Shown piece by piece: positions 4,779-29,493 of a DNA stretch of 32,000 bases. A model generated the notes under the pieces. That model searched no databases, was not told the DNA's origin, and saw nothing but the letters and a program-made list of their open reading frames with translations. The stretch is from an uncultured Chloroflexia bacterium (GTDB taxonomy: Bacteria; Chloroflexota; Anaerolineae; Anaerolineales; Anaerolineaceae): NCBI GenBank assembly GCA_963704755.1, contig OY969938.1, positions 1,020,001 through 1,052,000 of the forward strand. Direction: 5' to 3'. Made by a program: the position numbers and the translations under genes. The stretch's first letter is position 1. Every line of letters begins with the position of its first letter.

Positions 4779-6158
4779 TTACCCTCCGATGAAAACCAAT
4801 TGATACAACAAGAAGAGATTCAACGCGACGATCAGCGCAGATACTACGCTGGCGGCAATGGTGGTCAGCTTGTGGTTCACCAAAGAACCCATAATTTCTT
4901 TTCGAGAAGTATATACTACCAGCGGAATGATTGCGAACGGCAGTCCAAAACTGAGGATCACCTGGCTGAGGACCAGCGTGCGGGTCGGGTCAAGCCTCAT
5001 GGCAATGACGATAAAGGAAGGCAGCATGGTCATCAGCCGGCGGATCCACATCGGGATGTGGCGATGCAGGAAACCCTGCATGATAATCTGGCCGGCCATC
5101 GTGCCCACGGTCGAAGAGGAATGGCCCGAAGCGACCAGTGAGATGCCAAATACCAGGCTGGCTGCGCCGCCCAATAAAGGCGTCAGCGTGCGGTAAGCCT
5201 CTTCGATCGTTCCCACGTTAGTCAGGTTGTTCGTATGAAAAGTCGAGGCCGCCATGACCAGCATGGCTGCATTGACCAGGCCGGCAATGCTCATGGCGAT
5301 AATCACATCGACCAATTCGAAGTGAAACAGCCGGCGTAATTTCTTGGGGTCGTGGGTGACGATGCGCCGCTGAGTAAGACCCGAATGCAAGAAAATCGCG
5401 TGAGGCATTACCGTCGCCCCTAGAATGCCGGCTGCCAGCAGTATGCTCTCGGTGCCGCTAAAAGACGGTACCACGGCATGATAAGCCAGCGAACCCCAAT
5501 CCGGTTTGTCCAGAATAGTTTCGATGATGTACGAGACCGCGATCACCCCAATCAGGGCAGTGATCAGTGCTTCCAGCGGGCGGAAACCGCCATGCTCCAG
5601 CAGCAGAACGACCAGGGTCAAGAACCCCATCAAAACCGCCGGGATCAACAATTCCGGAATCCCAATCGTTGCTCCCAGATTATTAAACAAGTTGGGGAAC
5701 AGCAGGTAGATGCCCAGTGCAGCTCCCAAAAATTCGGCCAGATCGGTAGCCATGGCCACCAGCTCCATGACGATCCACATAGTAAATCCGGCCCAATACG
5801 GATAGTGGTCGCGCATGGTCTCGGCCAGGTTCTTGCCGGTCGCAATCCCCAATTTAGCCGCCAGCGACTGGATCAGCATGGCCATGATATTGCTGGCGAA
5901 CACCACCCACAAAAGCATATAGCCATATTGAGCGCCGGCCTGGATATTGGTGGCATAATTACCCGGGTCCACGTAAGCAACCGAGGCAATAAAAGCCGGT
6001 CCCATAAAGGGCAGCAGGCGCAAGAAAATGTTTTTCTTACTGGTGCCTTCCAAAACTTCCTGGGCCGCATTGACGGTGCCCACATCCGCCGAGCCAATTT
6101 CAGCTTCGACCGGTTCCTCTTCGCCCATTGCGGCTTCGGGCTTGATTGATCCTTCCAT
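4779..6158 (-). CDS. mntH: NRAMP-family divalent metal (Mn2+/Fe2+) proton symporter
   Basis: The 459-aa polytopic membrane protein has the Nramp signature VAYVDPGNYATNIQAG. A GAGGTG Shine-Dalgarno sequence lies 5 nt upstream of the ATG at 6158. Confidence 0.92.
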   Translation of the reverse strand: MEGSIKPEAAMGEEEPVEAEIGSADVGTVNAAQEVLEGTSKKNIFLRLLPFMGPAFIASVAYVDPGNYATNIQAGAQYGYMLLWVVFASNIMAMLIQSLAAKLGIATGKNLAETMRDHYPYWAGFTMWIVMELVAMATDLAEFLGAALGIYLLFPNLFNNLGATIGIPELLIPAVLMGFLTLVVLLLEHGGFRPLEALITALIGVIAVSYIIETILDKPDWGSLAYHAVVPSFSGTESILLAAGILGATVMPHAIFLHSGLTQRRIVTHDPKKLRRLFHFELVDVIIAMSIAGLVNAAMLVMAASTFHTNNLTNVGTIEEAYRTLTPLLGGAASLVFGISLVASGHSSSTVGTMAGQIIMQGFLHRHIPMWIRRLMTMLPSFIVIAMRLDPTRTLVLSQVILSFGLPFAIIPLVVYTSRKEIMGSLVNHKLTTIAASVVSALIVALNLFLLYQLVFIGG

Positions 6159-6235
6159 AAATCACCTCTTATGAATGCCTCGCGAGGGTGTCCCTCGCAA
6201 TAAATCGGTTTGCGATTGACAATTTTCGATAAACG

Positions 6236-6274
6236 AAATAGCCTCAGCTAATATTTATTTTAGATTTGTCTAAA
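6236..6274 (-). promoter_or_regulatory. Candidate metalloregulator operators in the mntH leader: a DtxR/IdeR-like box plus a TTTAGA-n4-TCTAAA palindrome
   Basis: The minus strand at 6256-6236 reads ATATTAGCTGAGGCTATTT. Its core TTAGCTGAGGCTA matches 11 of 13 positions of the IdeR/DtxR consensus core TTAGGTTAGGCTA. Positions 6259-6274 form a 6+4+6 palindrome. Both lie just downstream of the predicted -10 element. The assignment is by eye only. Confidence 0.35.
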
Positions 6275-6284
6275 TTTATGCTTA

Positions 6285-6313
6285 ACTATAACAAACAGCG
6301 CATTAAATGTCAA
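6285..6313 (-). promoter_or_regulatory. Sigma70-type promoter of the mntH operon
   Basis: The minus strand reads TTGACA (6313-6308), a 17-nt spacer, then TATAGT (6290-6285). This is about 125 nt upstream of the mntH ATG. Confidence 0.55.
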
Positions 6314-6355
6314 TATTTTTTGAGAGTGACTTTTCCTTCGCACTTTAAAAATCAA

Positions 6356-6409
6356 GGCAGTATGTTCTTTTTGGTGCGGGAAATCCTACACCAAAAAGAA
6401 CATACTGCC
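6356..6409. repeat. Perfect inverted repeat with a 21-bp stem and 12-nt loop
   Basis: GGCAGTATGTTCTTTTTGGTG (6356-6376) and CACCAAAAAGAACATACTGCC (6389-6409) are exact reverse complements. The repeat lies between the divergent mntH and cspA promoters. On the minus strand the stem is followed by TTGATTTTTAAAG. Confidence 0.9.
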
Positions 6410-6443
6410 GATTAAGACTAAATTTACCCACATAAAGTGGTGC

Positions 6444-6472
6444 TTGACTTATCGGGTACAATATAGTATTAT
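6444..6472 (+). promoter_or_regulatory. Sigma70-type promoter of cspA
   Basis: TTGACT (6444-6449), a 17-nt spacer, then TATTAT (6467-6472). This predicts a 5' UTR of about 145 nt, which is typical of cold-shock genes. Confidence 0.5.
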
Positions 6473-6515
6473 TTTCATGCAGGATACCAGTAGTTTACGT
6501 TGGAAGTGACGAGCA

Positions 6516-6543
6516 ACTCATGGTTATATCCATGGGTTTTTTT
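6516..6543 (+). promoter_or_regulatory. Terminator-like hairpin plus U-tract inside the cspA 5' leader, a possible attenuator or thermosensor element
   Basis: ACUCAUGG (6516-6523) pairs with CCAUGGGU (6530-6537) to give 8 bp including one G-U pair. A T7 run follows at 6537-6543, about 80 nt upstream of the start codon. Confidence 0.4.
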
Positions 6544-6625
6544 GTTCTACCCGTTCCGATGAAACAAACCGAGTTCCTGACAAATCCTTTTTCTTTTTTT
6601 ACTTGCCACAAGGAGGCAAATCACA

Positions 6626-6838
6626 ATGTCTGAACGTATCATCGGTACGGTCAAATGGTTCAATGGCAGCAAGGGTTATGGTTTCATTGCTCGCGATGGT
6701 GGAGACGACGTCTTCGTTCATTTTTCCGCCATTCAGAGCGATGGGTATCGCACTCTTGAAGAAGGCCAAAAAGTTGAGTTCACGGTAGAAAAAGGCGCCA
6801 AGGGCCCCCAGGCCAGCAACGTCACCGTGGTCAGCTAA
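6626..6838 (+). CDS. cspA: Cold-shock protein (CspA family, single CSD)
   Basis: The 70-aa ORF reads [36 protein letters not shown] and contains the RNP1 (KGYGFI) and RNP2 (VFVHF) motifs. An AAGGAGG Shine-Dalgarno sequence lies 8 nt upstream. Confidence 0.97.
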
Positions 6839-6853
6839 TTTAGCCGCTGAACC

Positions 6854-6895
6854 AAAAATCACCCCCCGGTCAAGACCGGGGGGTGATTTTTTTTT
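6854..6895. terminator. Bidirectional rho-independent terminator shared by cspA (+) and the opp-like operon (-)
   Basis: ATCACCCCCCGGTC (6858-6871) and GACCGGGGGGTGAT (6874-6887) form a perfect 14-bp GC-rich stem. A T9 run follows on the plus side and an A5 run precedes it, which reads as a T-run on the minus strand. Confidence 0.9.
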
Positions 6896-6986
6896 CGGCC
6901 GCTTCCACCCTGGTGAAACTTCCATTCTGAGTACCTACTCAGGCTGGTACGGAAATTTTGCGGTAACAGAGTAGTTGCCTTTTAGA

Positions 6987-7883
6987 TTATTCGATTGCAA
7001 CGTAATGATCAGGTTCCACCGCGACCAATCCACTGTAACTTTCGTCCTGACTCTGCGTTCCGGCCGGAACGACCGTTTCGGTCTTGTATTCCTTGCCGGG
7101 TTCTTCCCACTTCTTATCCAGCCGGGGAATTGAAGCCATCAGCATACGCGTGTAGCTATGCTGCGGGTTGTTGTAGATCTTTTCGGTCAAACCCATTTCC
7201 ACTACCTGCCCCCGGTAGAGGATAACGGCCCGTTCACTGATGTAATAGCCCAGCGACAGGTCATGGGTGATGAATAAAATGGATAACCCCTGCGATTTTA
7301 GGTCGGCCAGCAGGTTGAGTACGTCGATCCGCGTGGAAGCGTCCAACATGCTGATAATCTCATCCGCTACCAGGAAGCGAGTGTTCAACAAAAGCGCCCG
7401 GGCGATCAGGAAACGCTGGAGCTGGCCGCCGCTCAACTGGTGCGGGAATTTGTCGAGCACTTGCTCGGGGTTCAAGCCCACTCCCTTGAGCGAAGCCTCC
7501 ACCCGGCCGGTCCATTCCGACCCGGCAATGTGTGGGAAGAACTCATCGTGAATGATCTTAAACACCCGGTCCGCTTTGAAGATTGGATTATACGAGCTGA
7601 ACGGGTCTTGAAACACGCCCTGGACGGTACGGTAATATTCTTTTAATTTCGGGCCTTTTAAAGTGGTGATGTCCACGTCATCATGCAGGATTTTGCCCGA
7701 GCTGATCGAGATCAAGCGCAGGATCATCTTGCCGATCGTACTCTTACCGCTGCCGCTTTCGCCGATCAGCGAAACCACTTCGCCGTCTCGCAGGTCGAAA
7801 CTGACGTTATTGACCGCGCGCAGTTCTTTGCCGCCAAAGGCTCCAATCCGATAAATCTTTGAAATATTATCAAGCTTAAGCAT
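6987..7883 (-). CDS. Opp/Dpp-type ABC transporter ATP-binding protein (OppF/DppF-like)
   Basis: Motifs are Walker A GESGSGKST, signature LSGGQLQR and Walker B FLVADEIISMLD. I prefer the start MLKLDNISKIY at 7883, which gives an 8-nt ATGCTTAA overlap with the upstream stop. The ORF-track start at 7970 would add 29 aa that overlap the preceding gene. Confidence 0.88.
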   Translation of the reverse strand: MLKLDNISKIYRIGAFGGKELRAVNNVSFDLRDGEVVSLIGESGSGKSTIGKMILRLISISSGKILHDDVDITTLKGPKLKEYYRTVQGVFQDPFSSYNPIFKADRVFKIIHDEFFPHIAGSEWTGRVEASLKGVGLNPEQVLDKFPHQLSGGQLQRFLIARALLLNTRFLVADEIISMLDASTRIDVLNLLADLKSQGLSILFITHDLSLGYYISERAVILYRGQVVEMGLTEKIYNNPQHSYTRMLMASIPRLDKKWEEPGKEYKTETVVPAGTQSQDESYSGLVAVEPDHYVAIE

Positions 7884-8839
7884 TCGTACCGGTCTCCCTC
7901 CAGCAGGCCACCGAATGGCCCGGCTCGACTTCGATGAACGGCGGTTTTTCGATACACTTTTCGAACGCAACCGGGCAACGGTCCCTGAAACGACAACCGA
8001 CCGGTGGGTCGAGCAGCATTGGCGGTCGACCGGGAATTCCCATCAAGCGCTTTTCGGAGAATTTCACGCCTACCTTGGGCAGTGATGAAATCAGCAGTTT
8101 GGTGTAAGGGTGACGCGGGTTTTGGATGATCGCCTTGGTCGAGGCTTTTTCGGCTAATTCCCCGGCATACATGACCATAATACTGTCTGCGATCTGATAC
8201 AGGATGGAAATATCGTGAGTGATGACGATCACACTTTTGACGAATTTGCGGTCACGGAACTCGACCAGCATCTCGGCCACTGCCTTCTGGCTGGAAACGT
8301 CCAGCGCCGAGGTGATTTCATCCGCAATCAGCAGTGAAGGGTTCAACAGGGTCGAGAGCACCATCACCATGCGCTGTTTCATCCCACCCGAGAGTTCGAT
8401 CGGGAACATGTTCAGCACACTGGTAGGTAGATTTACCAGCTCCAGGCGCCGTTCCAGCTCGGGCAGCATTTCATGGTAACTTACCTTCCGGGATGCCAGC
8501 AAATCCGCGGTCATTCGGCCAATTTTGCGGGTCGGGTTCATCGCGTTCATCGCGTATTGTGGAATGATCGAAACCCGCTCGAACCTGAAACTATCCATCA
8601 TCTCGGAATCGTGGATCGGTAAATTGTCGCCATCCAGAGTAACCTGGCCACCCACATATTTCATCGGTGGGTTGAGCCGGATCAGGCTGTGACCCAGGGT
8701 GGTCTTTCCGCAGCCAGATTCTCCCGCCAGGCCCATGATCTCACCATCGGCTATTTTAAAGGTAGCGCTTTCCAGGGCATGGACATCTCCATGGAGAGTT
8801 CTGGTAATAGACTGTGAGTTTATCTACTTGTAAGCTCAT
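7876..8839 (-). pseudogene. Opp/Dpp-type ABC transporter ATP-binding protein (OppD/DppD-like) interrupted by a one-nucleotide frame change at 8800. This is a true frameshift, a sequencing error or recoding.
   Basis: The ORF track begins at MGLAGESGCGKTT, so Walker A would sit at residue 5 and the N-terminal strands would be missing. An ATG at 8839 lies 3 nt after the oppC stop and has a GGGAG Shine-Dalgarno sequence. It encodes MSLQVDKLTVYYQ in another frame. The +1 frame then continues TLHGDVHALESATFKIADGEIMGLAGESG. The total of 964 nt equals 321 codons plus 1 nt. Confidence 0.85.
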
Positions 8840-9700: not shown

Positions 9701-10689
9701 GCTGATTTACCTAGCATTCCCATCCGGGTGCGCGGATCCACCAGGACATAAACGATATCGATGGCGAAATTAGCCAGCAACACCCCGATAATAATGAACA
9801 AGAAACATCCTTGCAGCAGGAAGTAATCCTGGTTTTGGATGGCTTCCAGAATCAGGTAACCGATGCCCGGGTAAGAAAACACGATCTCGGTGGCCAGCGC
9901 TCCGGCAATAATGACACCCAGTTGCAGTGCCAGGCCAGTTAATTGGGGCAGGACGGCATTCCTAAATGCATACCGCCGGACCAGTTTTTTTGGCGCCCCC
10001 AGCGCTTCGAGATAGTGTGAATAGTCGGCTTCGAGTTCGTAGATAATCATGTTACGCATGCCGATCGCCCAACCGCCGAATTGCACCATGAAGAGCGAGG
10101 CAAATGGTAAAAACCAGTGTTGCAATAAGCTGCCGATAAAAGCCCAGGACAAAGTGGGCCTCATCGAAAAGCTATACGCTCCTGAAATTGGAAAGATATG
10201 AAGGACGATTCCAAACACCCATCCCAGCAAAATTCCCAGCCACATATACGGCGTAGCGGTGAGGATATAGCCAATAGGTGAAATCGTGTTGTCCAGCCGT
10301 TTGGTGCGAGCTGCGATCGCTCCGAAATTATTACCGGCAAACCAGCTTAACAGGATAGCCGGGAGCAGCAGAAAGAGGTCGTAGGGTACGGCTCTTTTAA
10401 TGACCGTGATCACGGGTGTCGGATAAACAAATACGCTCGTTCCCAGGTCACCATGGAAAAGAGCCACCCAAAAGTTTAGATATTGTTTCCAAATCGGTAA
10501 ATCCAGGCCAAAAGCTTTGGTGAAATAACCGGTCATGGCCTGGGCGGCATTTGCCCGTAAACTATAGCGTGACAAAAGAATTTGGACGGGATCACCGGGC
10601 ATGAAGCGCGGGATCATCCAATCGATGGTCACCGCCAGGAAGAATGTTAAGAGGTAGATGAGGATCTTTCTCCTGATGTATCGGTTCAC
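9697..10689 (-). CDS. Opp/Dpp-type ABC transporter permease (OppB/DppB-like)
   Basis: The 330-aa ORF has the N-terminus MNRYIRRKILIYLLTFFLAVTIDWMIPRFMPGDP, characteristic of OppB/DppB. It also has an EAA loop (YLEALGAPKKLVRRYAFRNA). It starts at GTG with a GGAG Shine-Dalgarno sequence. Confidence 0.9.
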   Translation of the reverse strand: MNRYIRRKILIYLLTFFLAVTIDWMIPRFMPGDPVQILLSRYSLRANAAQAMTGYFTKAFGLDLPIWKQYLNFWVALFHGDLGTSVFVYPTPVITVIKRAVPYDLFLLLPAILLSWFAGNNFGAIAARTKRLDNTISPIGYILTATPYMWLGILLGWVFGIVLHIFPISGAYSFSMRPTLSWAFIGSLLQHWFLPFASLFMVQFGGWAIGMRNMIIYELEADYSHYLEALGAPKKLVRRYAFRNAVLPQLTGLALQLGVIIAGALATEIVFSYPGIGYLILEAIQNQDYFLLQGCFLFIIIGVLLANFAIDIVYVLVDPRTRMGMLGKSA

Positions 10690-10894: not shown

Positions 10895-12706
10895 CTACTG
10901 AGCGGCCGCGGCAGGCTGTAAATCACACAGCATGAGGATAGCGGTCATATTCCAGTAACCACGCCAGGTTACCGGCAGGTAATGGTTGGCATCGGTTGCC
11001 TCAGACGGCCAGTTGGTCCAGTAGGTGTTGTTGTACTGAGCCCAGGCGCCGTTGTACCACATCGGGATCAACGGTACGTTTTGCATCTGGATCGTCTGCA
11101 ATTGCGAAATGATGGATTTCATCGTAGCAACATCATCAGTCTTGGTCTGGTCGAGCTGATCAACCAGGTCGAAGGCTTTTTGATTGTCGTAGCGGCCATA
11201 GTTACCATTCTGGATGGTCGCGACGTTCGCCAGATCGCTCATGAATATCCAATGGTAGTACGTCCAGGGGCTGTTGCTCATCTGCGCGTCATTGGCGATC
11301 ATCATATCGAAGGTGGCGTTGTTGCGCTGATCGATGTAGCCGCCATAGTCCGGGAAGTTGGATTGGGCATCAATGCCGATCGCCTGCAGGCTGCTGACGA
11401 TGATCTTGTTGGCTTCCATCCAGTCTGTCCAGCCATCCGGGTTATTGACGTTCAATTGAATCTTCGAGCCATCCGGAGCTTCAACGAAACCATCGCCATC
11501 GATATCTTTGTAGCCGGCGGCTGCCAGGATTTGCTTGGCCTTGTCCGGATCGTATGAGATACCGTCTTTGCTGACGACAGCCTGATCCACATACTGGTCC
11601 CAAATGGGCAGTAAGCCGGTCGGGTTGGAGGCAGCTACGATGTTGCCATAGTCCTGGTCAACGATCTGCTGAACGTTGATGCCGTAGGCAACTGCCTTGC
11701 GGAAGTTGACGTCATCCATAGGCTTCTTGGTCAGGTTCAGGAGCAGCCAGGCCGTGTTGGCAGAAAGCATATATGGAGGCTGAGAGTAGTAAGTCTGAAC
11801 GCCATAACCACCGTTGACCAGCGTGGCGATGCCGGGCAGGAAGTTGTTACTCAGGTCAAGTCCGCCTTGCAGGACCATACCCAGGGCAACGTTGTTGCTG
11901 CCGTTGACCACATCGACGATGTACTTTGGCTTGGGATCCAGATTGAGAGCCGAAATCGCCCACCAGTTGGGGTTCTTCACCCACACCATGCGGTCCTGGC
12001 CGTAGGAGTTGAACAGGTACGGGCCGGTGCCGACAGGTTTCTCATTGGCGCCAGAGGTGATCTCATCCTGGCTCATGCTAGACCACAGGTGCTGCGGCAC
12101 AACGGGGGTTGAGTAGAGGACGTTCGCCCACTGTTGGTACAGAGCCTTGGTGAAATTGAAGTCGAGGGTGTAATCATCCACCTGGTCGATGCTGGAGAGG
12201 AAGTCCCAGATTGTGCTGATGTTGATCGGGTTCGTTTTGCCAAGTTCGAATGTGAATTTCACATCCGCAGCGGTGAGGGGCTGGCCATCCGACCAGTTGA
12301 TGCCCTGGCGAATTTTTACTTCATAGACGGTATCGCTCGTCCAGTCGCCGCTTTCGGCCAACCAGGGTTTGTACTCGTTGGTCATCGGGTCATACAGGAA
12401 CAGGGTTTCATAGACCAGGCCCAGGGTGCCCATGGCATAACCACCGGTGTTGAAGGGGTTCCAACTGGAAGGTGGGCCATACTGTGTACCGCTGGTGTAA
12501 AGGGTTTCATCCCTTGGGAAGGTTTCTGCTGAGGCTTCCGGGGTGGCGGTCACGATTTGTGTTTCTGGCGTGCCCGGGACGATCACGGTCTGCTGAATCA
12601 CTTCCGGGGGCTGAGTCGCAGCCGGCGTTGCTGCCGGGCTACAGCTTGTTAGTGCCAAGCTCGCTAAAATAACGATACTTGCGACAGTCAATACTACCTT
12701 ACGCAT
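10895..12706 (-). CDS. ABC transporter substrate-binding lipoprotein, family 5 (OppA/DppA-like), probably binding an oligosaccharide
   Basis: The 603-aa ORF has a signal peptide with the lipobox LALTSC followed by a Pro/Ala/Thr-rich linker. Its size and position ahead of the BCDF genes fit an OppA/DppA-type SBP. A GGAGG Shine-Dalgarno sequence lies upstream. Confidence 0.88.
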   Translation of the reverse strand: MRKVVLTVASIVILASLALTSCSPAATPAATQPPEVIQQTVIVPGTPETQIVTATPEASAETFPRDETLYTSGTQYGPPSSWNPFNTGGYAMGTLGLVYETLFLYDPMTNEYKPWLAESGDWTSDTVYEVKIRQGINWSDGQPLTAADVKFTFELGKTNPINISTIWDFLSSIDQVDDYTLDFNFTKALYQQWANVLYSTPVVPQHLWSSMSQDEITSGANEKPVGTGPYLFNSYGQDRMVWVKNPNWWAISALNLDPKPKYIVDVVNGSNNVALGMVLQGGLDLSNNFLPGIATLVNGGYGVQTYYSQPPYMLSANTAWLLLNLTKKPMDDVNFRKAVAYGINVQQIVDQDYGNIVAASNPTGLLPIWDQYVDQAVVSKDGISYDPDKAKQILAAAGYKDIDGDGFVEAPDGSKIQLNVNNPDGWTDWMEANKIIVSSLQAIGIDAQSNFPDYGGYIDQRNNATFDMMIANDAQMSNSPWTYYHWIFMSDLANVATIQNGNYGRYDNQKAFDLVDQLDQTKTDDVATMKSIISQLQTIQMQNVPLIPMWYNGAWAQYNNTYWTNWPSEATDANHYLPVTWRGYWNMTAILMLCDLQPAAAAQ

Positions 12707-16615: not shown

Positions 16616-19426
16616 TTACGCCTTGCGCAGCGCCATTAAAATCTTTTCCTGGTCCACCGGTAGACTGTCCAGGCGGACACCGACTGCATTGTAGATGGCA
16701 TTGGTGATGGCCGGGCTGGTGGGAATGAGGACGATCTCGCCCACGCCTTTGGCGCCAAAGGGCCCGTCCGGGCTGGGGTGTTCGACCACGATCGTGGTAA
16801 TCTCCGGCGTCATGGTGATCGAGGGGATGCGGTAACGCGCCAGCCGGTCGGTGATCACCATGCCCTTATCGACGATAAATTGCTCGGTCAGGGCATGGCC
16901 AACCCCCATCATCGCTCCGCCTTCGAGCTGGCCTTGCAGCCCGAGCGGATTGACGGCGATGCCTACATCGTTCGCGGTGATCAGGCGCAGCACCTTCACC
17001 TCGCCGGTCAGCAAGTTCACTTCGACTTCGATCGCCTGGGCAGCGAACGAAAAAGCGAAGTGCATATCTCCGCCTTCACCTAACGGGCGTGTAGCCGGGG
17101 CCCAATAGGTATACATCGCCTGGGGCGAGCGCCCATCTTCGATAATCTGCTGGGCTAACTCGGAAAGCTCCACGGTAAAACCGTTGGCGTGCGCCAGGCC
17201 CTCTTCGTAACGGATCTTCTCCGGCGGCACATCGTACCGCTCGGCCAGTTCGCTGGTCATCAACTCGCGTAGGGCCCGTGAAGCGTAGCGCACCGCGTTC
17301 CCGGTGACGAACGTTTGCCGTGAAGCGGTGGTCGGTCCGCCGTCCGGGGTCAGGTCGGTATCCGAGAGCAGCACGTCCACCTGGTGGGCGGGTTGGTCCA
17401 GCTCTTCGGCCGCGATCAATTGCAACACTGTGGGCAGCCCCTGGCCCAATTCGGCCGACGAGGTCCGTACCTGGAAAGTCCCATCCCGGCGCAGCTCGAC
17501 TTCGGCACCGGCTTTGTCCGGCGCACCGCCGCCCAGGCCGGTGTTCTTGTAAGCCACAGCGAAACCCCACGAGCGCACCAGGTGTGGTGCGCCGGCCACT
17601 TTTTTCGCCTGGAAGGGCTGATCACCGCCCAATTCGTGCAATTTAGCTTCGACCTGCGCAATGCAATCCAGCAAGCCCACACTGTTGCGCAGCACCTGGC
17701 CGGTGTTGGTAACGCTGCCTTCGTGCAGGGCGTTCATCCGGCGCAGCTCCAGCGGATCGATGGCCAGTTTCTCGGCCAGCGTGTCCATCATGCTTTCCAC
17801 CGCAAAAGCCGACTGCATGACCCCAAACCCGCGGAAAGCGCCCGCAGGCGGGTTGTTGGTGTACATCGCGAAACAATCCGCCTTGACGTGCGGAACCTCG
17901 TACGGCCCGGAAGAATGGGTGGTGGCGCGGGTCATGACCTTATCGCCCAGCGAGGCGTATGCGCCGGTATCGCCGTACAATTCGGTCTCGACCGCGGTTA
18001 GCCGGCCGTCTTTCCTGGCACCAACCTTGACCCGGATCTGGGTCGCATGGCGCTTGGGATGGGCGATCAGGCTCTCCTGGCGGTCGTACAGCAGCTTGAC
18101 CGGCCGGCCGGTGGCCTGCGTCAGCAAAGCCGCAAAAATTTGCCCGGCAATGTCCTCTTTCCCGCCGAAACCGCCGCCGATCAACTGGCCCACAATCCGC
18201 ACCCGCGATTCCTCCCAACCTAACACCCGCGCAACCTGGCTGCGGTCCTCATAAGGGATCTGTGAGCCGACGAAAATCTCCATGCGTCCCTCCGGAGTCA
18301 GGCGCGAGATGCTGCATTCGGGCTCCAAAAAGGCGTGGTCGTGCACCGGAGTATGGTAAGTATGTTCCAGGATAACGTCCGCTTCCGCAAAGCCTTCCGT
18401 AACGTCACCCTTGCGGACCTTGATATGTTTGAGCAGGTTGCCCTGGGGGTGGATAGACTCCGCGTCCGGCTGATTTGCCAGAACCGGGTCATCCACGACA
18501 GGCAATAAATCGAACTCGGCTTCGATCAAATCGACCGCCTGGCCGGCAATCTCGCGGGTGTCGGCGGCCACAATCGCCAGAGCATCCCCTACCGTGCGGA
18601 TACGCTCGCCCAGGCCGACCATCACCGGCCAATCGAAGACCACCACGCCGTGATTGTGCTCACCGGGGATGTCCGCGGCGGTCAAAACCGCCACTACACC
18701 GGGCAGCGCGCGGGCTTTACTGACGTCCAGTTTGCGCAAGGTTGCCGACGGCACCATGGCCCGTTTGACCCGTGCATGCAGCATATTCTCAAATACCAGG
18801 TCGTCGGTGAAAATAGCTTTCCCGGTCACTTTCGCCACCGCATCCGGCCGCGGGCGGATCTGGCCCACTTCTTTTCGCCCGGCCGGCGAAGGCGCCAGCC
18901 TGGGCAGCGCCACCGGCTCGCCGGTGCGCAGGCTGTCCGCAGCCGCATGGATCGCCCGCAAAATGCTCGGGTACCCTCCACAGCGGCAAAGGGTATCTTT
19001 CAAAGCGTCCTTAATCTCGTCGTCGCTCGGGTCCGGGTTATGCTGCAGCAGTGCATAGGACGTCAATAACTGCCCAGGGATGCAGAAACCGCACTGGACC
19101 GAGCCGTATTTGATAAATGCTTCCTGAAGGGGATGGAGCGCCACTTCCTCCGGGGTTTGTTGGGCTTGCGGGGCGGCCTTCCCCAACCCTTCGATTGTCA
19201 TGACCGAAGCGCCATCCGCCTTGGCGGCCGGGTAGGAACAGGACAGCACCGGCTCGCCATCCAGGATGACGGTGCATGAGCCGCACTCGGCTTCGTTACA
19301 GCCGATCTTGGTCCCGGTCAATCGCAAGCGGTCGCGCAGCAGGTCCGCCAGCATTTCACCGGGGACTTCTTCCAATTCATACGGTTGCCCGTTTACAGTC
19401 AAGTGGATCATTCGCTCGCCGGTCAT
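16616..19426 (-). CDS. Xanthine dehydrogenase/aldehyde oxidoreductase-family molybdenum hydroxylase, with the [2Fe-2S] small subunit fused to the molybdopterin-binding large subunit (MOP-like)
   Basis: The 936-aa ORF has N-terminal CNEAECGSCTV and CRCGGY two-cluster motifs. The MoCo domains follow, with the signature GGGFGGK (LIGGGFGGKEDI). A 4-nt ATGA overlap links it to the FAD subunit gene. Confidence 0.9.
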   Translation of the reverse strand: MTGERMIHLTVNGQPYELEEVPGEMLADLLRDRLRLTGTKIGCNEAECGSCTVILDGEPVLSCSYPAAKADGASVMTIEGLGKAAPQAQQTPEEVALHPLQEAFIKYGSVQCGFCIPGQLLTSYALLQHNPDPSDDEIKDALKDTLCRCGGYPSILRAIHAAADSLRTGEPVALPRLAPSPAGRKEVGQIRPRPDAVAKVTGKAIFTDDLVFENMLHARVKRAMVPSATLRKLDVSKARALPGVVAVLTAADIPGEHNHGVVVFDWPVMVGLGERIRTVGDALAIVAADTREIAGQAVDLIEAEFDLLPVVDDPVLANQPDAESIHPQGNLLKHIKVRKGDVTEGFAEADVILEHTYHTPVHDHAFLEPECSISRLTPEGRMEIFVGSQIPYEDRSQVARVLGWEESRVRIVGQLIGGGFGGKEDIAGQIFAALLTQATGRPVKLLYDRQESLIAHPKRHATQIRVKVGARKDGRLTAVETELYGDTGAYASLGDKVMTRATTHSSGPYEVPHVKADCFAMYTNNPPAGAFRGFGVMQSAFAVESMMDTLAEKLAIDPLELRRMNALHEGSVTNTGQVLRNSVGLLDCIAQVEAKLHELGGDQPFQAKKVAGAPHLVRSWGFAVAYKNTGLGGGAPDKAGAEVELRRDGTFQVRTSSAELGQGLPTVLQLIAAEELDQPAHQVDVLLSDTDLTPDGGPTTASRQTFVTGNAVRYASRALRELMTSELAERYDVPPEKIRYEEGLAHANGFTVELSELAQQIIEDGRSPQAMYTYWAPATRPLGEGGDMHFAFSFAAQAIEVEVNLLTGEVKVLRLITANDVGIAVNPLGLQGQLEGGAMMGVGHALTEQFIVDKGMVITDRLARYRIPSITMTPEITTIVVEHPSPDGPFGAKGVGEIVLIPTSPAITNAIYNAVGVRLDSLPVDQEKILMALRKA

Positions 19427-23526: not shown

Positions 23527-24459
23527 TTAGTTTTCGCCCCGTTCGAAGGGTTTGGTCAGCGCATCGGGTTGGTTGGTGCGGCGGACTGCGAAAACGAGCG
23601 CCAGGATGGTCAGGATATATGGCATCATGACCGCAATGTCAGAGGGCAGGTTGATACCTTTCACCTGGATCCAGAGCTGCAAGGCGTTGACAAAACTGAA
23701 CAACAAAGCGCCCGCCATCACACCGTTGGGGCGCCAACCACCAAAATAAACCAGGGCCACAGCTATGAAGCCCATCCCATTGGTCATGTTCTCCTGGAAC
23801 AGGTTAATCAGCGCGATTGAAAGGGAAGCCCCGGCGATACCGGCCAGAATCCCGCCAATACAGACCGTAATGTAGCGGATACGGTTGACGTTGACACCTA
23901 ACGTATCGGCGGCCTGGGGGTTTTGCCCGACCGCGCGGACTTTCAGCCCAAAGGTCGTCTTGTTGAGCACCCAGGTAGCCAGGGGAACCAGCAGGAAAGC
24001 CCCATAAACCAAAATATTATGGTCGAAAAGCACACTGCCAACGTAGGGGATATCTCCCAATAGGGGGATTTTGATCGGCTGAAAACCATTGATCAACTCG
24101 GCTCCGCCCAGGGTGGTCTTGAACAACAATGTGGAGAGTCCCAGGCCGAATAATTGCAAGCCAATTCCGCTGATACCCTGTTCGGCTTGCAGGGTAACGC
24201 TGATGACCGCCATCAGCAAACCCATCAGCAGACCTACCAGGCCGGCCGCCAGCAGACCCAGCCACAGGTTGCCGGTCTTCATCCCGGCAAAAAAGCCGGC
24301 GTAGGCGCCCATCAGCATAATGCCATCTACACCCAGGTTGAGCACACCGGAGGTTTGGGCAAAGGTCTCACCAATCGCGGCGTAAAGATACGGGGTCGCC
24401 AGGCGAATGCCCGAATAAATAATTCCCAGTAGTACCGGTAGCGTGAATAGATCAGACAT
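23527..24459 (-). CDS. ABC transporter permease (YufQ/NupC-type, BMP system)
   Basis: The 310-aa polytopic protein belongs to the BPD_transp_2 family (branched-chain/ribose type). Its start is coupled to the upstream permease through an ATGTCTGA overlap once that gene's frame is corrected. Confidence 0.88.
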   Translation of the reverse strand: MSDLFTLPVLLGIIYSGIRLATPYLYAAIGETFAQTSGVLNLGVDGIMLMGAYAGFFAGMKTGNLWLGLLAAGLVGLLMGLLMAVISVTLQAEQGISGIGLQLFGLGLSTLLFKTTLGGAELINGFQPIKIPLLGDIPYVGSVLFDHNILVYGAFLLVPLATWVLNKTTFGLKVRAVGQNPQAADTLGVNVNRIRYITVCIGGILAGIAGASLSIALINLFQENMTNGMGFIAVALVYFGGWRPNGVMAGALLFSFVNALQLWIQVKGINLPSDIAVMMPYILTILALVFAVRRTNQPDALTKPFERGEN

Positions 24460-25532
24460 CCATTTCTCTCCTGCGAGCCCGCCGTGTCCCCCAAATTTTG
24501 CTGCCCACCACGAATAGGACCACTAAACCCAATAGAGTTCTGGATTAATGCAGACGGTACCTGCACAGCGCGCTGCATTTTGTCTCCTCCCACCAGCAAA
24601 CCGCCAAACAAAATCGAGGCCGGGATGGCCCCCAGCGGGTGTAAATTCCCAAAGAGCGCGGCTACGATGCCCGAAAAGCCATATCCGCCGGACAAACCTT
24701 CCAGCATACGGTGCTGGACACCCAGCACCTCTACCGTCCCGGCCAGGCCGGCAAAGGCCCCACCCAGGGTCAACGCCAGCATCTGGTAGAAAGGTACCGG
24801 GATACCGGCATAGCGGGAAGCCTTGGGATTGAGCCCTACCGCGCGGATGCGGTAACCGATCGTCGTCCGCCAGAGGAAAATGTACACTAATCCGGCCAGG
24901 ACCACCGCCAGGATGGCGCCTGAGTGCAGCAGCGTTTGCGGCACCAGCCGCGCCAGGTAAACCTGTTTGGGCAGCAGGGCCGATTGGGCAATCCGCGTGC
25001 CGGCGGCGATTTCTGCCGGATCGATCAGCGGTCCGCGCAGCAGAAAATTTGCAAGCTGGGTCGCAATGGCGTTCATCATGACCGTGCTCAGGATCTCGTT
25101 CACCCCCAGTCGAGCCTTGAGGAAACCCGGGATACCCCCCCAGACTGCACCACCCAAAGCCCCTGCAAGCAGGCAGAGCGGCAGCAAGATCACACCCGGC
25201 CAGGTTGGGAAACTTACCGCCAGGGCGGTGGTGGCCAGAGCGCCGACCAGGATCTGTCCCTCCCCGCCGATGTTGATCACCCCGCCGCGAAAGGCGATCG
25301 TGACACCCAGGCCAACCAGCAGCAGCGGCGTGGCTTTGACCAGTGTCTGGGTGATACCCGAGACACTCCCAAAAGCACCTTGAAAGAGCGAGCCGTACGC
25401 CTCGATCGGGTTCGCCTTGAGGGCTAATAACATTATGGCACCGAATATAAAAGCAACCGGGACTGCCAGGAGTGGAAGTAATGCTTCCATGATACGGTTG
25501 AGTATGGTTCTCAATCCTTGATGATCCGGCAT
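24452..25532 (-). pseudogene. ABC transporter permease (YufP/NupB-type, BMP system) with a one-nucleotide frame change at 24539. This is a true frameshift, a sequencing error or recoding.
   Basis: After ...GGDKMQRAVQVPSALIQ the ORF-track frame reads an unlikely hydrophilic tail (NSIGFSGPIRGGQQNLGDTAGSQERNG...). That tail overlaps the next gene by 133 nt. The +1 frame gives TLLGLVVLFVVGSKIWGTRRARRREMDV-stop, a final TM helix plus a basic tail. It ends at 24452 in the classic 8-nt overlap with the next start. The total of 1081 nt equals 360 codons plus 1 nt. Confidence 0.85.
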
Positions 25533-26024: not shown

Positions 26025-26073
26025 ATATCTGGGGGTTGCTGGCGGGCGAAGCCCGCCAGCAACCCCCAGATAT
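26025..26073. repeat. Perfect 49-nt palindrome with a 23-bp stem and GAA loop
   Basis: ATATCTGGGGGTTGCTGGCGGGC (26025-26047), GAA, then GCCCGCCAGCAACCCCCAGATAT (26051-26073). The arms are exact reverse complements and no U-tract follows on either strand. Confidence 0.95.
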
Positions 26074-26277
26074 CTTAACCATCACGGCGATTCCCAATGA
26101 GCCTTTAAATCAACCTTGGGAGAGAATCGATTTTGGAGGCTGCCCCAAAGCGGTTTTGGAACAGCCTTTCGACCCGATCCGCTGTTTTTGGGGGTGGCTC
26201 CTCAAGAAAAATTCGTTCGTGGAGAGAAAAGCTGTGAAAACCAATAACATAACCTTAACAAGACCCAGGGCAATCCC

Positions 26278-28620: not shown

Positions 28621-29493
28621 ATGATCAATCCAATCATTTTCACCATTCGCATCGGCAGCTTTTCATTAGCCATCCACTGGTATGGGGTCATCGTCATGTC
28701 GGCGATCCTGATTGCCACCTGGCTGGCCACCCGTGAACTGGAGCGCAAACACGGCGACCCGAACTGGATCTGGGATTCGCTGCCCCTGATCGTCCTGTTC
28801 GGCGTGATCGGCGCCCGGCTGTGGTATGTGGTCAACGACATCCTGGGCGGAGATCCGCATTACCTGGCCCAGCCGCTCGATATCCTCAACATACCAGCCG
28901 GCGGGCTGCATATTTTTGGCGGTTTCCTGTTCGGCGGGATTACTTTTTTGATTTATGCGCGCAAGAACAAGGTAGACGTCTGGAAAGTAATCGATTCGCT
29001 CGCGCCCTTCCTGCTCATTGGCCAGGCGCTCGCCCGGCCGGCCAATTTCATCAACCAGGAGCTTTACGGTCCGCCCACAACCTTGCCCTGGGGTATCCCT
29101 ATTTCAGCCGACCACCGCATCTTTCCCTGGACAGACCTGGTCCAATATCCGGTCGCCACGACCCGCTTCCACCCCACCTTTGCCTACGAAATGATCTGGA
29201 ATTTTGCCGCCGGCGGGCTGCTGGTCTGGCTCTCGCATAAATACGAGGACCGCCTGCGCCCGGGCGCGGTCTTCTTCGCCTGGTTGATCCTGGCCGGGGT
29301 TGGGCGGGTGATTATCGAAGCCTTCCGCCCGGACCAGCCGGTTATTCCCGGCACCGGCTTGAGCTATTCACGGCTCATCTCAGGACTGATGGCCCTGGCC
29401 GGGATAATCCTGCTTCTCGGGCGATACGACGTCTTCCACTTCAAGTTTTTACCCCCTGCCGCCGAAAGCGACGCGCCTGTAGAAGAGAAATAA
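28621..29493 (+). CDS. lgt: Prolipoprotein diacylglyceryl transferase
   Basis: The 290-aa ORF has the Lgt hallmarks HWYGVIV, GARLWYV, GGLHIFGG, RPANFINQELYG..T.LPWG and FHPTFAYE. Confidence 0.92.
   Translation: MINPIIFTIRIGSFSLAIHWYGVIVMSAILIATWLATRELERKHGDPNWIWDSLPLIVLFGVIGARLWYVVNDILGGDPHYLAQPLDILNIPAGGLHIFGGFLFGGITFLIYARKNKVDVWKVIDSLAPFLLIGQALARPANFINQELYGPPTTLPWGIPISADHRIFPWTDLVQYPVATTRFHPTFAYEMIWNFAAGGLLVWLSHKYEDRLRPGAVFFAWLILAGVGRVIIEAFRPDQPVIPGTGLSYSRLISGLMALAGIILLLGRYDVFHFKFLPPAAESDAPVEEK

Follow-up and report, generated by a model that had tools for sequence, protein, structure and literature searches.

Within the 32,000-nucleotide stretch of DNA analysed here (the window), two transporter genes are each broken by a single surplus nucleotide in the same 10-mer, CCAGAACTCT. 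The extra A is very probably a context-specific consensus insertion error at an N6-methylated (m6A) GANTC site and not a biological feature. It would be absent from the organism's DNA, and both sites would in reality read CCAGACTCT (...CAG ACT CT..., encoding Gln-Thr-Leu). As the extra A would not be part of the DNA, both genes are most likely intact, one coding for an OppD-type ATPase of 320 aa and the other for a permease of 359 aa. The initial annotation had already ranked a motif-specific artefact, possibly linked to modification, above recoding. This ranking is now backed by the GANTC site in the corrected word, by miscalls restricted to GANTC, by a contig break at the first site, and by relatives that are in frame.

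The first break is located in an oligopeptide-type ABC transporter operon on the minus strand, which comprises oppA (12706-10895), oppB (10689-9697), oppC (9700-8843), an oppD-like gene, and oppF (7883-6987). The oppD-like gene starts at an ATG at 8839-8837 (minus strand), 3 nt past the stop codon of oppC and separated by 9 nt from a preceding GGGAG sequence. From there, frame 0 reads MSLQVDKLTVYYQ-NSPWRCPCPGKRYL and terminates at the TAA at 8758-8756. The +1 frame opens past a TAG at 8826-8824 and reads ...TLHGDVHALESATFKIADGEIMGLAGESGCGKTT; from this TAG until the Met at 8736 it contains no ATG, GTG or TTG. Start, frame 0 and +1 frame were all as the initial annotation had described them, and its coordinates for this site were accurate wherever checked. 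The site and the two parts of the gene are arranged as follows:

8795-8804, minus strand: site 1, the 10-mer CCAGAACTCT with the surplus nucleotide, placed by homologue alignment
Minus strand, layout of site 1 by homologue alignment: CAG at 8803-8801, surplus A at 8800 or 8799, then ACT
8756-8839, minus strand: 5' fragment of the oppD-like gene in frame 0, consisting of MSLQVDKLTVYYQ, 14 out-of-frame codons, and TAA
7876-8799, minus strand: remainder of the oppD-like ABC ATPase gene in the +1 frame (TLHGDVHALES... Walker A ... stop)

Joining the two frames results in a product of 320 aa. This product was compared with its best 119 non-self OppD homologues, which share 76–81% identity with it, are mostly 320–322 aa in length and cover 98–100% of the joined sequence. 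All of them read YYQTL[RHK]G across the junction, and the join is therefore free of gaps, as had been proposed. The sole shortened OppD match was the 286-aa gene call of the source genome itself (P0001). As a side observation near this operon, a match to the Rfam cspA thermoregulator was obtained at 6484-6889 on the plus strand (102.7 bits compared to a gathering score of 78). It spans the leader and the coding region of a gene for a 70-aa cold-shock protein (ORF 6626-6838), which is situated between an Nramp gene and oppF.

The second break claimed initially likewise proved to be a true one-nucleotide break, at 24534-24543 in a BMP-type permease gene:

24534-24543, minus strand: site 2, the 10-mer CCAGAACTCT, identical to that at site 1
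Minus strand, layout of site 2: CAG at 24542-24540, surplus A at 24539 or 24538
24540-25532, minus strand: BMP-type (BMP/PnrA-type) ABC permease 1, from its start through ...VPSALIQ, frame 0
24452-24538, minus strand: +1-frame part that supplies the true C-terminus of permease 1, reading TLLGLVVLFVVGSKIWGTRRARRREMDV up to a TGA

The joined product of permease 1 has a length of 359 aa, which is the modal length among its homologues, and these read PSAL[IV]xTLLGL across the junction (also given as PSALIxTLLGL). The TGA reached in the +1 frame overlaps the ATG of permease 2 at 24459. Since the joined products match their homologues at both sites, each break can be described as one surplus nucleotide in a CAGA that stands in the place of one codon. 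If left uncorrected, permease 1 appears as a false ORF of 401 aa (24327-25532, minus strand) that overruns the start of permease 2 (23527-24459, minus strand). For permease 2, the source genome's own call is shortened to 272 aa (P0253) compared to 310 aa.

As the initial annotation had noted, CCAGAACTCT is present at both breaks. There are exactly two copies in the window (8795-8804 and 24534-24543, both on the minus strand), compared to an expectation of about 0.06 exact copies for 32 kb. Among the approximately 27 genes of the window, these are the only two frame breaks, and the roughly 25 remaining genes show full-length Pfam domain coverage. Both breaks resemble the homopolymer indels of long reads in that a gene that is otherwise intact appears frameshifted owing to a length error of one base. 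However, the difference here is one between A and AA that is tied to a flanking word, and longer runs, such as the A7 in oppB, are unbroken; no frame break occurs at a homopolymer anywhere in the window.

That exactly one nucleotide is surplus and that it is located within CAGA held up well, but its assignment to A8800 goes beyond what homology fixes. Deletion of G8801, A8800 or A8799 in each case yields Gln-Thr, and deletion of A8802 yields Arg-Thr, which is present in some homologues. The surplus base was chosen as an A because of the GANTC argument and not by homology alone. Removal of one A converts CCAGAACTCT into CCAGACTCT, which contains GACTC and hence a GANTC site, and a GANTC methyltransferase would modify the very A that is duplicated. 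Similarly, the 10-mer put forward as the unit does mark both breaks, but the true 9-mer CCAG(m6A)CTCT is probably the unit that matters. No intact CCAGACTCT occurs in the window; GACTC with other flanks occurs at 16 sites, none of which coincides with a frame break. The Thr codon at both breaks (8797-8799 and 24536-24538, minus strand) is ACT, which is rare in the window (4.6 per 1000 compared to 35.3 per 1000 for ACC). That only two genes are hit in 32 kb is explained in part by the need of GACTC in this position for the rare ACT codon.

The initial annotation had suggested an alignment of orthologous oppD genes. In this alignment, all species representatives with a readable site were in frame and read YY[QR]TL; five of them carry the exact CCAGACTCT (TAC CAG ACT CT) at the oppD site. 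At site 2, an independent ENA metagenome contig (L084) reads ATC CAA TCC CTG in frame, with permease 1 terminated by the same overlapping TGA. The adjacent permease of L084 shares 97% amino-acid identity with that of the window, and the contig stems from a different strain or species. JGI metagenome contigs were scanned with a degenerate pattern that requires one extra base between the Gln and the Thr codon, using the in-frame pattern as control. No copy with a +1 insertion was obtained, compared to at least 120 in-frame copies. A role of the 10-mer as a recoding signal of the family was rejected: in 1.32 Mb from 80 related species representatives, CCAGAACTCT occurs twice, which is the chance rate, and one of the copies is inside an intact ORF of about 840 codons.

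The insertions might also be real, in which case both genes would be true pseudogenes that perhaps arose by a site-specific mutational process. The deposited assembly does carry the extra base, and pseudogenes do exist in uncultured lineages. However, two independent, identical insertions in the same 10-mer within 32 kb are very unlikely to result from random decay, and to our knowledge no mutational process inserts an A at GACTC. Each gene has only one lesion, the joined products align end-to-end with homologues at about 80% identity, and every operon partner is intact. A further point against true decay is that the link between GANTC and miscalls, described below, plays no role in it. We therefore regard true pseudogenes as a quite unlikely explanation, even though the contig break at site 1 (see below) could also reflect real allelic heterogeneity. 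On general grounds, a diversity-generating retroelement or phase variation would seem improbable, as there is no repeat tract and the indel is located in a housekeeping transporter gene.

Programmed recoding would require either a +1 shift at CAG-A-ACU in CCAGAACUCU or a tRNA with an expanded anticodon that reads CAGA as Gln. The occurrence of the same word at both breaks would be in line with such an event. The trans-frame products are perfect full-length proteins (with the trans-frame peptides LTVYYQTLHGDVHALESATFK and ...VPSALIQTLLGLVVLFVVGSK), and at site 1 CAGA stands in the place of a conserved Gln codon. In contrast, the frameshift is absent from the relatives with a readable site, including the 97%-identical neighbour. 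As the initial annotation had pointed out, the site lacks a classical slippery codon, since tRNA-Gln on CAG cannot re-pair on AGA, and no other frameshift signal was seen. No Shine-Dalgarno-like (GGAGG-like) stimulator is located upstream of either site, and the folding of 90 nt downstream did not differ from that of shuffled sequences (z of -0.34 and +0.71). Furthermore, the A site is occupied in frame 0 by AAC, which is preferred among the Asn codons (24 per 1000) and thus neither 'hungry' nor a stop. We consider it extremely improbable that programmed recoding accounts for the breaks.

Comparison with known recoding systems leads to a similar picture. In the +1 frameshift of prfB (RF2), which takes place at CUU UGA C with an upstream Shine-Dalgarno stimulator, a full-length product likewise needs a +1 shift. 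Unlike prfB, the present sites lack a slippery codon in the P site as well as a Shine-Dalgarno stimulator, their A-site codon is neither a stop nor slow, and the shift is not conserved in orthologues. The +1 shift of the Ty3 type and four-base suppressor tRNAs of the sufB2/sufD type come closer in that no P-site re-pairing is needed, and a single residue could in principle be decoded from CAGA. However, there is no 'hungry' codon here, no such tRNA is encoded in the window, which contains no tRNA gene at all, and again there is no conservation. In addition, CAGA is read normally elsewhere: in the intact genes of the window, an in-phase CAG is followed by A 40 times and an in-frame CAG AAC occurs once, in no case with a break. 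General quadruplet decoding of CAGA was thus rejected, because it would be harmful at these 40 sites. What would be left is a real AA together with a context-dependent +1 event at CCAGAACUCU, by four-base decoding of CAGA through a dedicated tRNA or by a new, non-slippery signal acting genome-wide, and this we judge to be scarcely credible.

Exact-protein look-ups led to Logan contigs of the sequencing run ERR11571143, which originate from the same strain and cover 16 kb of the window:

5820-8799 of the window: Logan contig L002
8803-11461 of the window: Logan contig L001
18973-22636 of the window: Logan contig L205
25269 to beyond 32000 of the window: Logan contig L083

Two of these contigs meet at site 1. 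L001 ends with ...GTCTATTACC at 8803, L002 starts with ACTCTCCATGG... at 8799, and only AGA (8802-8800) is uncovered between them. The reads of ERR11571143 are ambiguous at site 1, as judged from this break in the assembly graph and not from a read pileup. The left contig stops 1–3 nt earlier than a simple two-allele GA/GAA bubble predicts. The other end of L001 is located inside GAATC at 11458-11462. Over the 16 kb covered, only three SNPs distinguish the Logan contigs from the window, at 10211, 26128 and 28993. All three are G-to-A differences at the leading G of a GANTC site, on either strand, and the probability of this occurring by chance is (40/16035)^3, or about 1e-8. The GANTC sites concerned are:

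11458-11462, plus strand: GAATC at the end of L001; the contig leaves out the G at 11462
10207-10211, minus strand: GAATC on the minus strand; L001 has A for the leading G
26124-26128, plus strand: GAATC; C/T difference at the last base between L083 and the window, corresponding to G-to-A at the leading G on the opposite strand
28993-28997, plus strand: GATTC; G/A difference at the leading G between L083 and the window

The L001 allele at 10211 would replace a Gly by Glu in a membrane segment of OppB. Because this Gly is near-invariant among OppB homologues, we regard the contig allele as a read error and the window as correct at this position.

Two findings count against a role of methylation: about 15 of the 20 GANTC sites covered by Logan contigs are without any difference, and of the seven contig ends that fall within the window, four are away from GANTC. 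Alternatively, the insertion could be specific for a k-mer and unrelated to methylation, with CCAGACTCT being miscalled as CCAGAACTCT by a certain version of the basecaller or polisher model. Such an error would be expected to hit the same word in the same way twice without any further frame break in the window, as is the case, and it agrees with disagreement at only a minority of GANTC sites. However, with three of three SNPs between reads and assembly falling on GANTC, modification is favoured over bare sequence context. In addition, an intact in-frame CCAGACTCT occurs at the homologous OppD position (position 10036) in L047 (MFD04408.bin.1.182, contig_25101), a megabase-contig MAG of a relative that, judging from its name, presumably stems from the same nanopore-only project. 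The bare 9-mer hence escapes miscalling in some cases, in line with an error that depends on methylation; the GANTC observed/expected ratio of L047 is 0.81. A k-mer error independent of methylation therefore appears unlikely to us.

A methylation-linked insertion, the explanation we prefer, could arise as follows. The organism most likely methylates GANTC by a CcrM/HinfI-type enzyme that produces N6-methyladenine, as suggested by the positions of the miscalls together with the depletion of the motif. The source genome was most likely assembled from native-DNA nanopore reads, a platform that we infer here as we do for ERR11571143. The methylated A would distort the pore signal, and basecallers are known to confuse the purine directly before such an A. 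The consensus, resulting from assembly and one round of polishing, would then have settled on GAACTC for GACTC in this 9-base context. As about 9 bases shape the pore signal, two loci that share both the 9-mer and the methylation would suffer the same error, and GACTC with other flanks would be called correctly.

With regard to the depletion, 48 GANTC sites are present in the window, compared to 122.8 +/- 11.5 expected from dinucleotide-preserving shuffles (100 of 100 shuffles contained more). In related Anaerolineae loci, the observed/expected ratio lies between 0.25 and about 1.0 (median 0.71). The depletion would fit a lineage that carries a GANTC restriction-modification system; because the relatives are also somewhat depleted, it lends this assumption weak to moderate support. 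No methyltransferase gene is located in the window. CTAG is rarer still in the window (13 compared to 122), and scarcity of CTAG is common to many bacteria.

Methylation-induced errors of R10.4.1 nanopore sequencing have been described as 'ambiguous positions' with the minimal motif RA/TY (Lohde et al. 2024, PMC11610573), and in Brucella, assembly errors linked to GANTC affect only some occurrences of the motif (PMC12392509). The errors reported in these studies resemble our observations in several respects: disagreement occurs at the purine directly before the presumed methylated A, in a short palindromic motif, at some occurrences only and inside coding sequences, and ambiguity of the reads shows up as breaks in the assembly graph. 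In contrast to the published cases, which are mainly A/G and C/T substitutions, we observed a one-base insertion in a single 9-mer context, and methylation is presumed; a report of this exact insertion was not found. Among the matches listed, close relatives assembled into megabase contigs are 'MFD...bin' MAGs, presumably from the Microflora Danica long-read project. This project is nanopore-only and used super-accurate basecalling with Guppy, Flye and one round of Medaka 1.8.0 without short-read polishing (PMC12313526). The source genome, which is deposited at NCBI and ENA as one contig of 4,871,623 bp, appears to fit a nanopore-only project of this kind.

For the biology of the organism, little is at stake: the genes for the oligopeptide ATPase and the nucleoside/sugar permease should be treated as intact and neither as pseudogenes nor as recoded. 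For quality control, our findings suggest that a nanopore-only consensus can contain not only substitutions but also a reproducible one-base insertion owing to a methylation motif. Such an error would recur at every copy of one 9-mer. By chance, a genome of 4.9 Mb should contain roughly 30–40 of these copies, so that a corresponding number of false frameshifts is possible. The effects extend to annotation, as exemplified at site 2 by the false ORF of permease 1 and the shortened call of the gene that follows. Scans of long-read MAG catalogues for recoding or pseudogenes therefore need a filter for motif-linked breaks.

Some minor observations concern the Logan contigs. No exact full-length permease 2 product from ERR11571143 is on record. 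The contig ends at 5820, 18973, 22636 and 25269 revealed no convincing common motif. Those at 5820 (L002) and 22636 (L205) are in GTCTC or a few nt from it (ATGGT/CTCGG and GATG/TGCGTCTCAG, with the slash marking the end), and nothing similar was seen at 18973 and 25269. The proximity of GTCTC to two contig ends might point to GAGAC/GTCTC as a second modification motif or be due to chance. L083 and the window also differ by two indels in the intergenic region 26070-26107, between the permease operon and a sulfotransferase gene. The window has an extra AT at 26070-26071 (...CCCCAG[AT]ATCTT...), and an A-run differs by 1 nt at 26106/26107. Both indels are located within 20 nt of the GATTC at 26089-26093 and represent either errors or strain differences.
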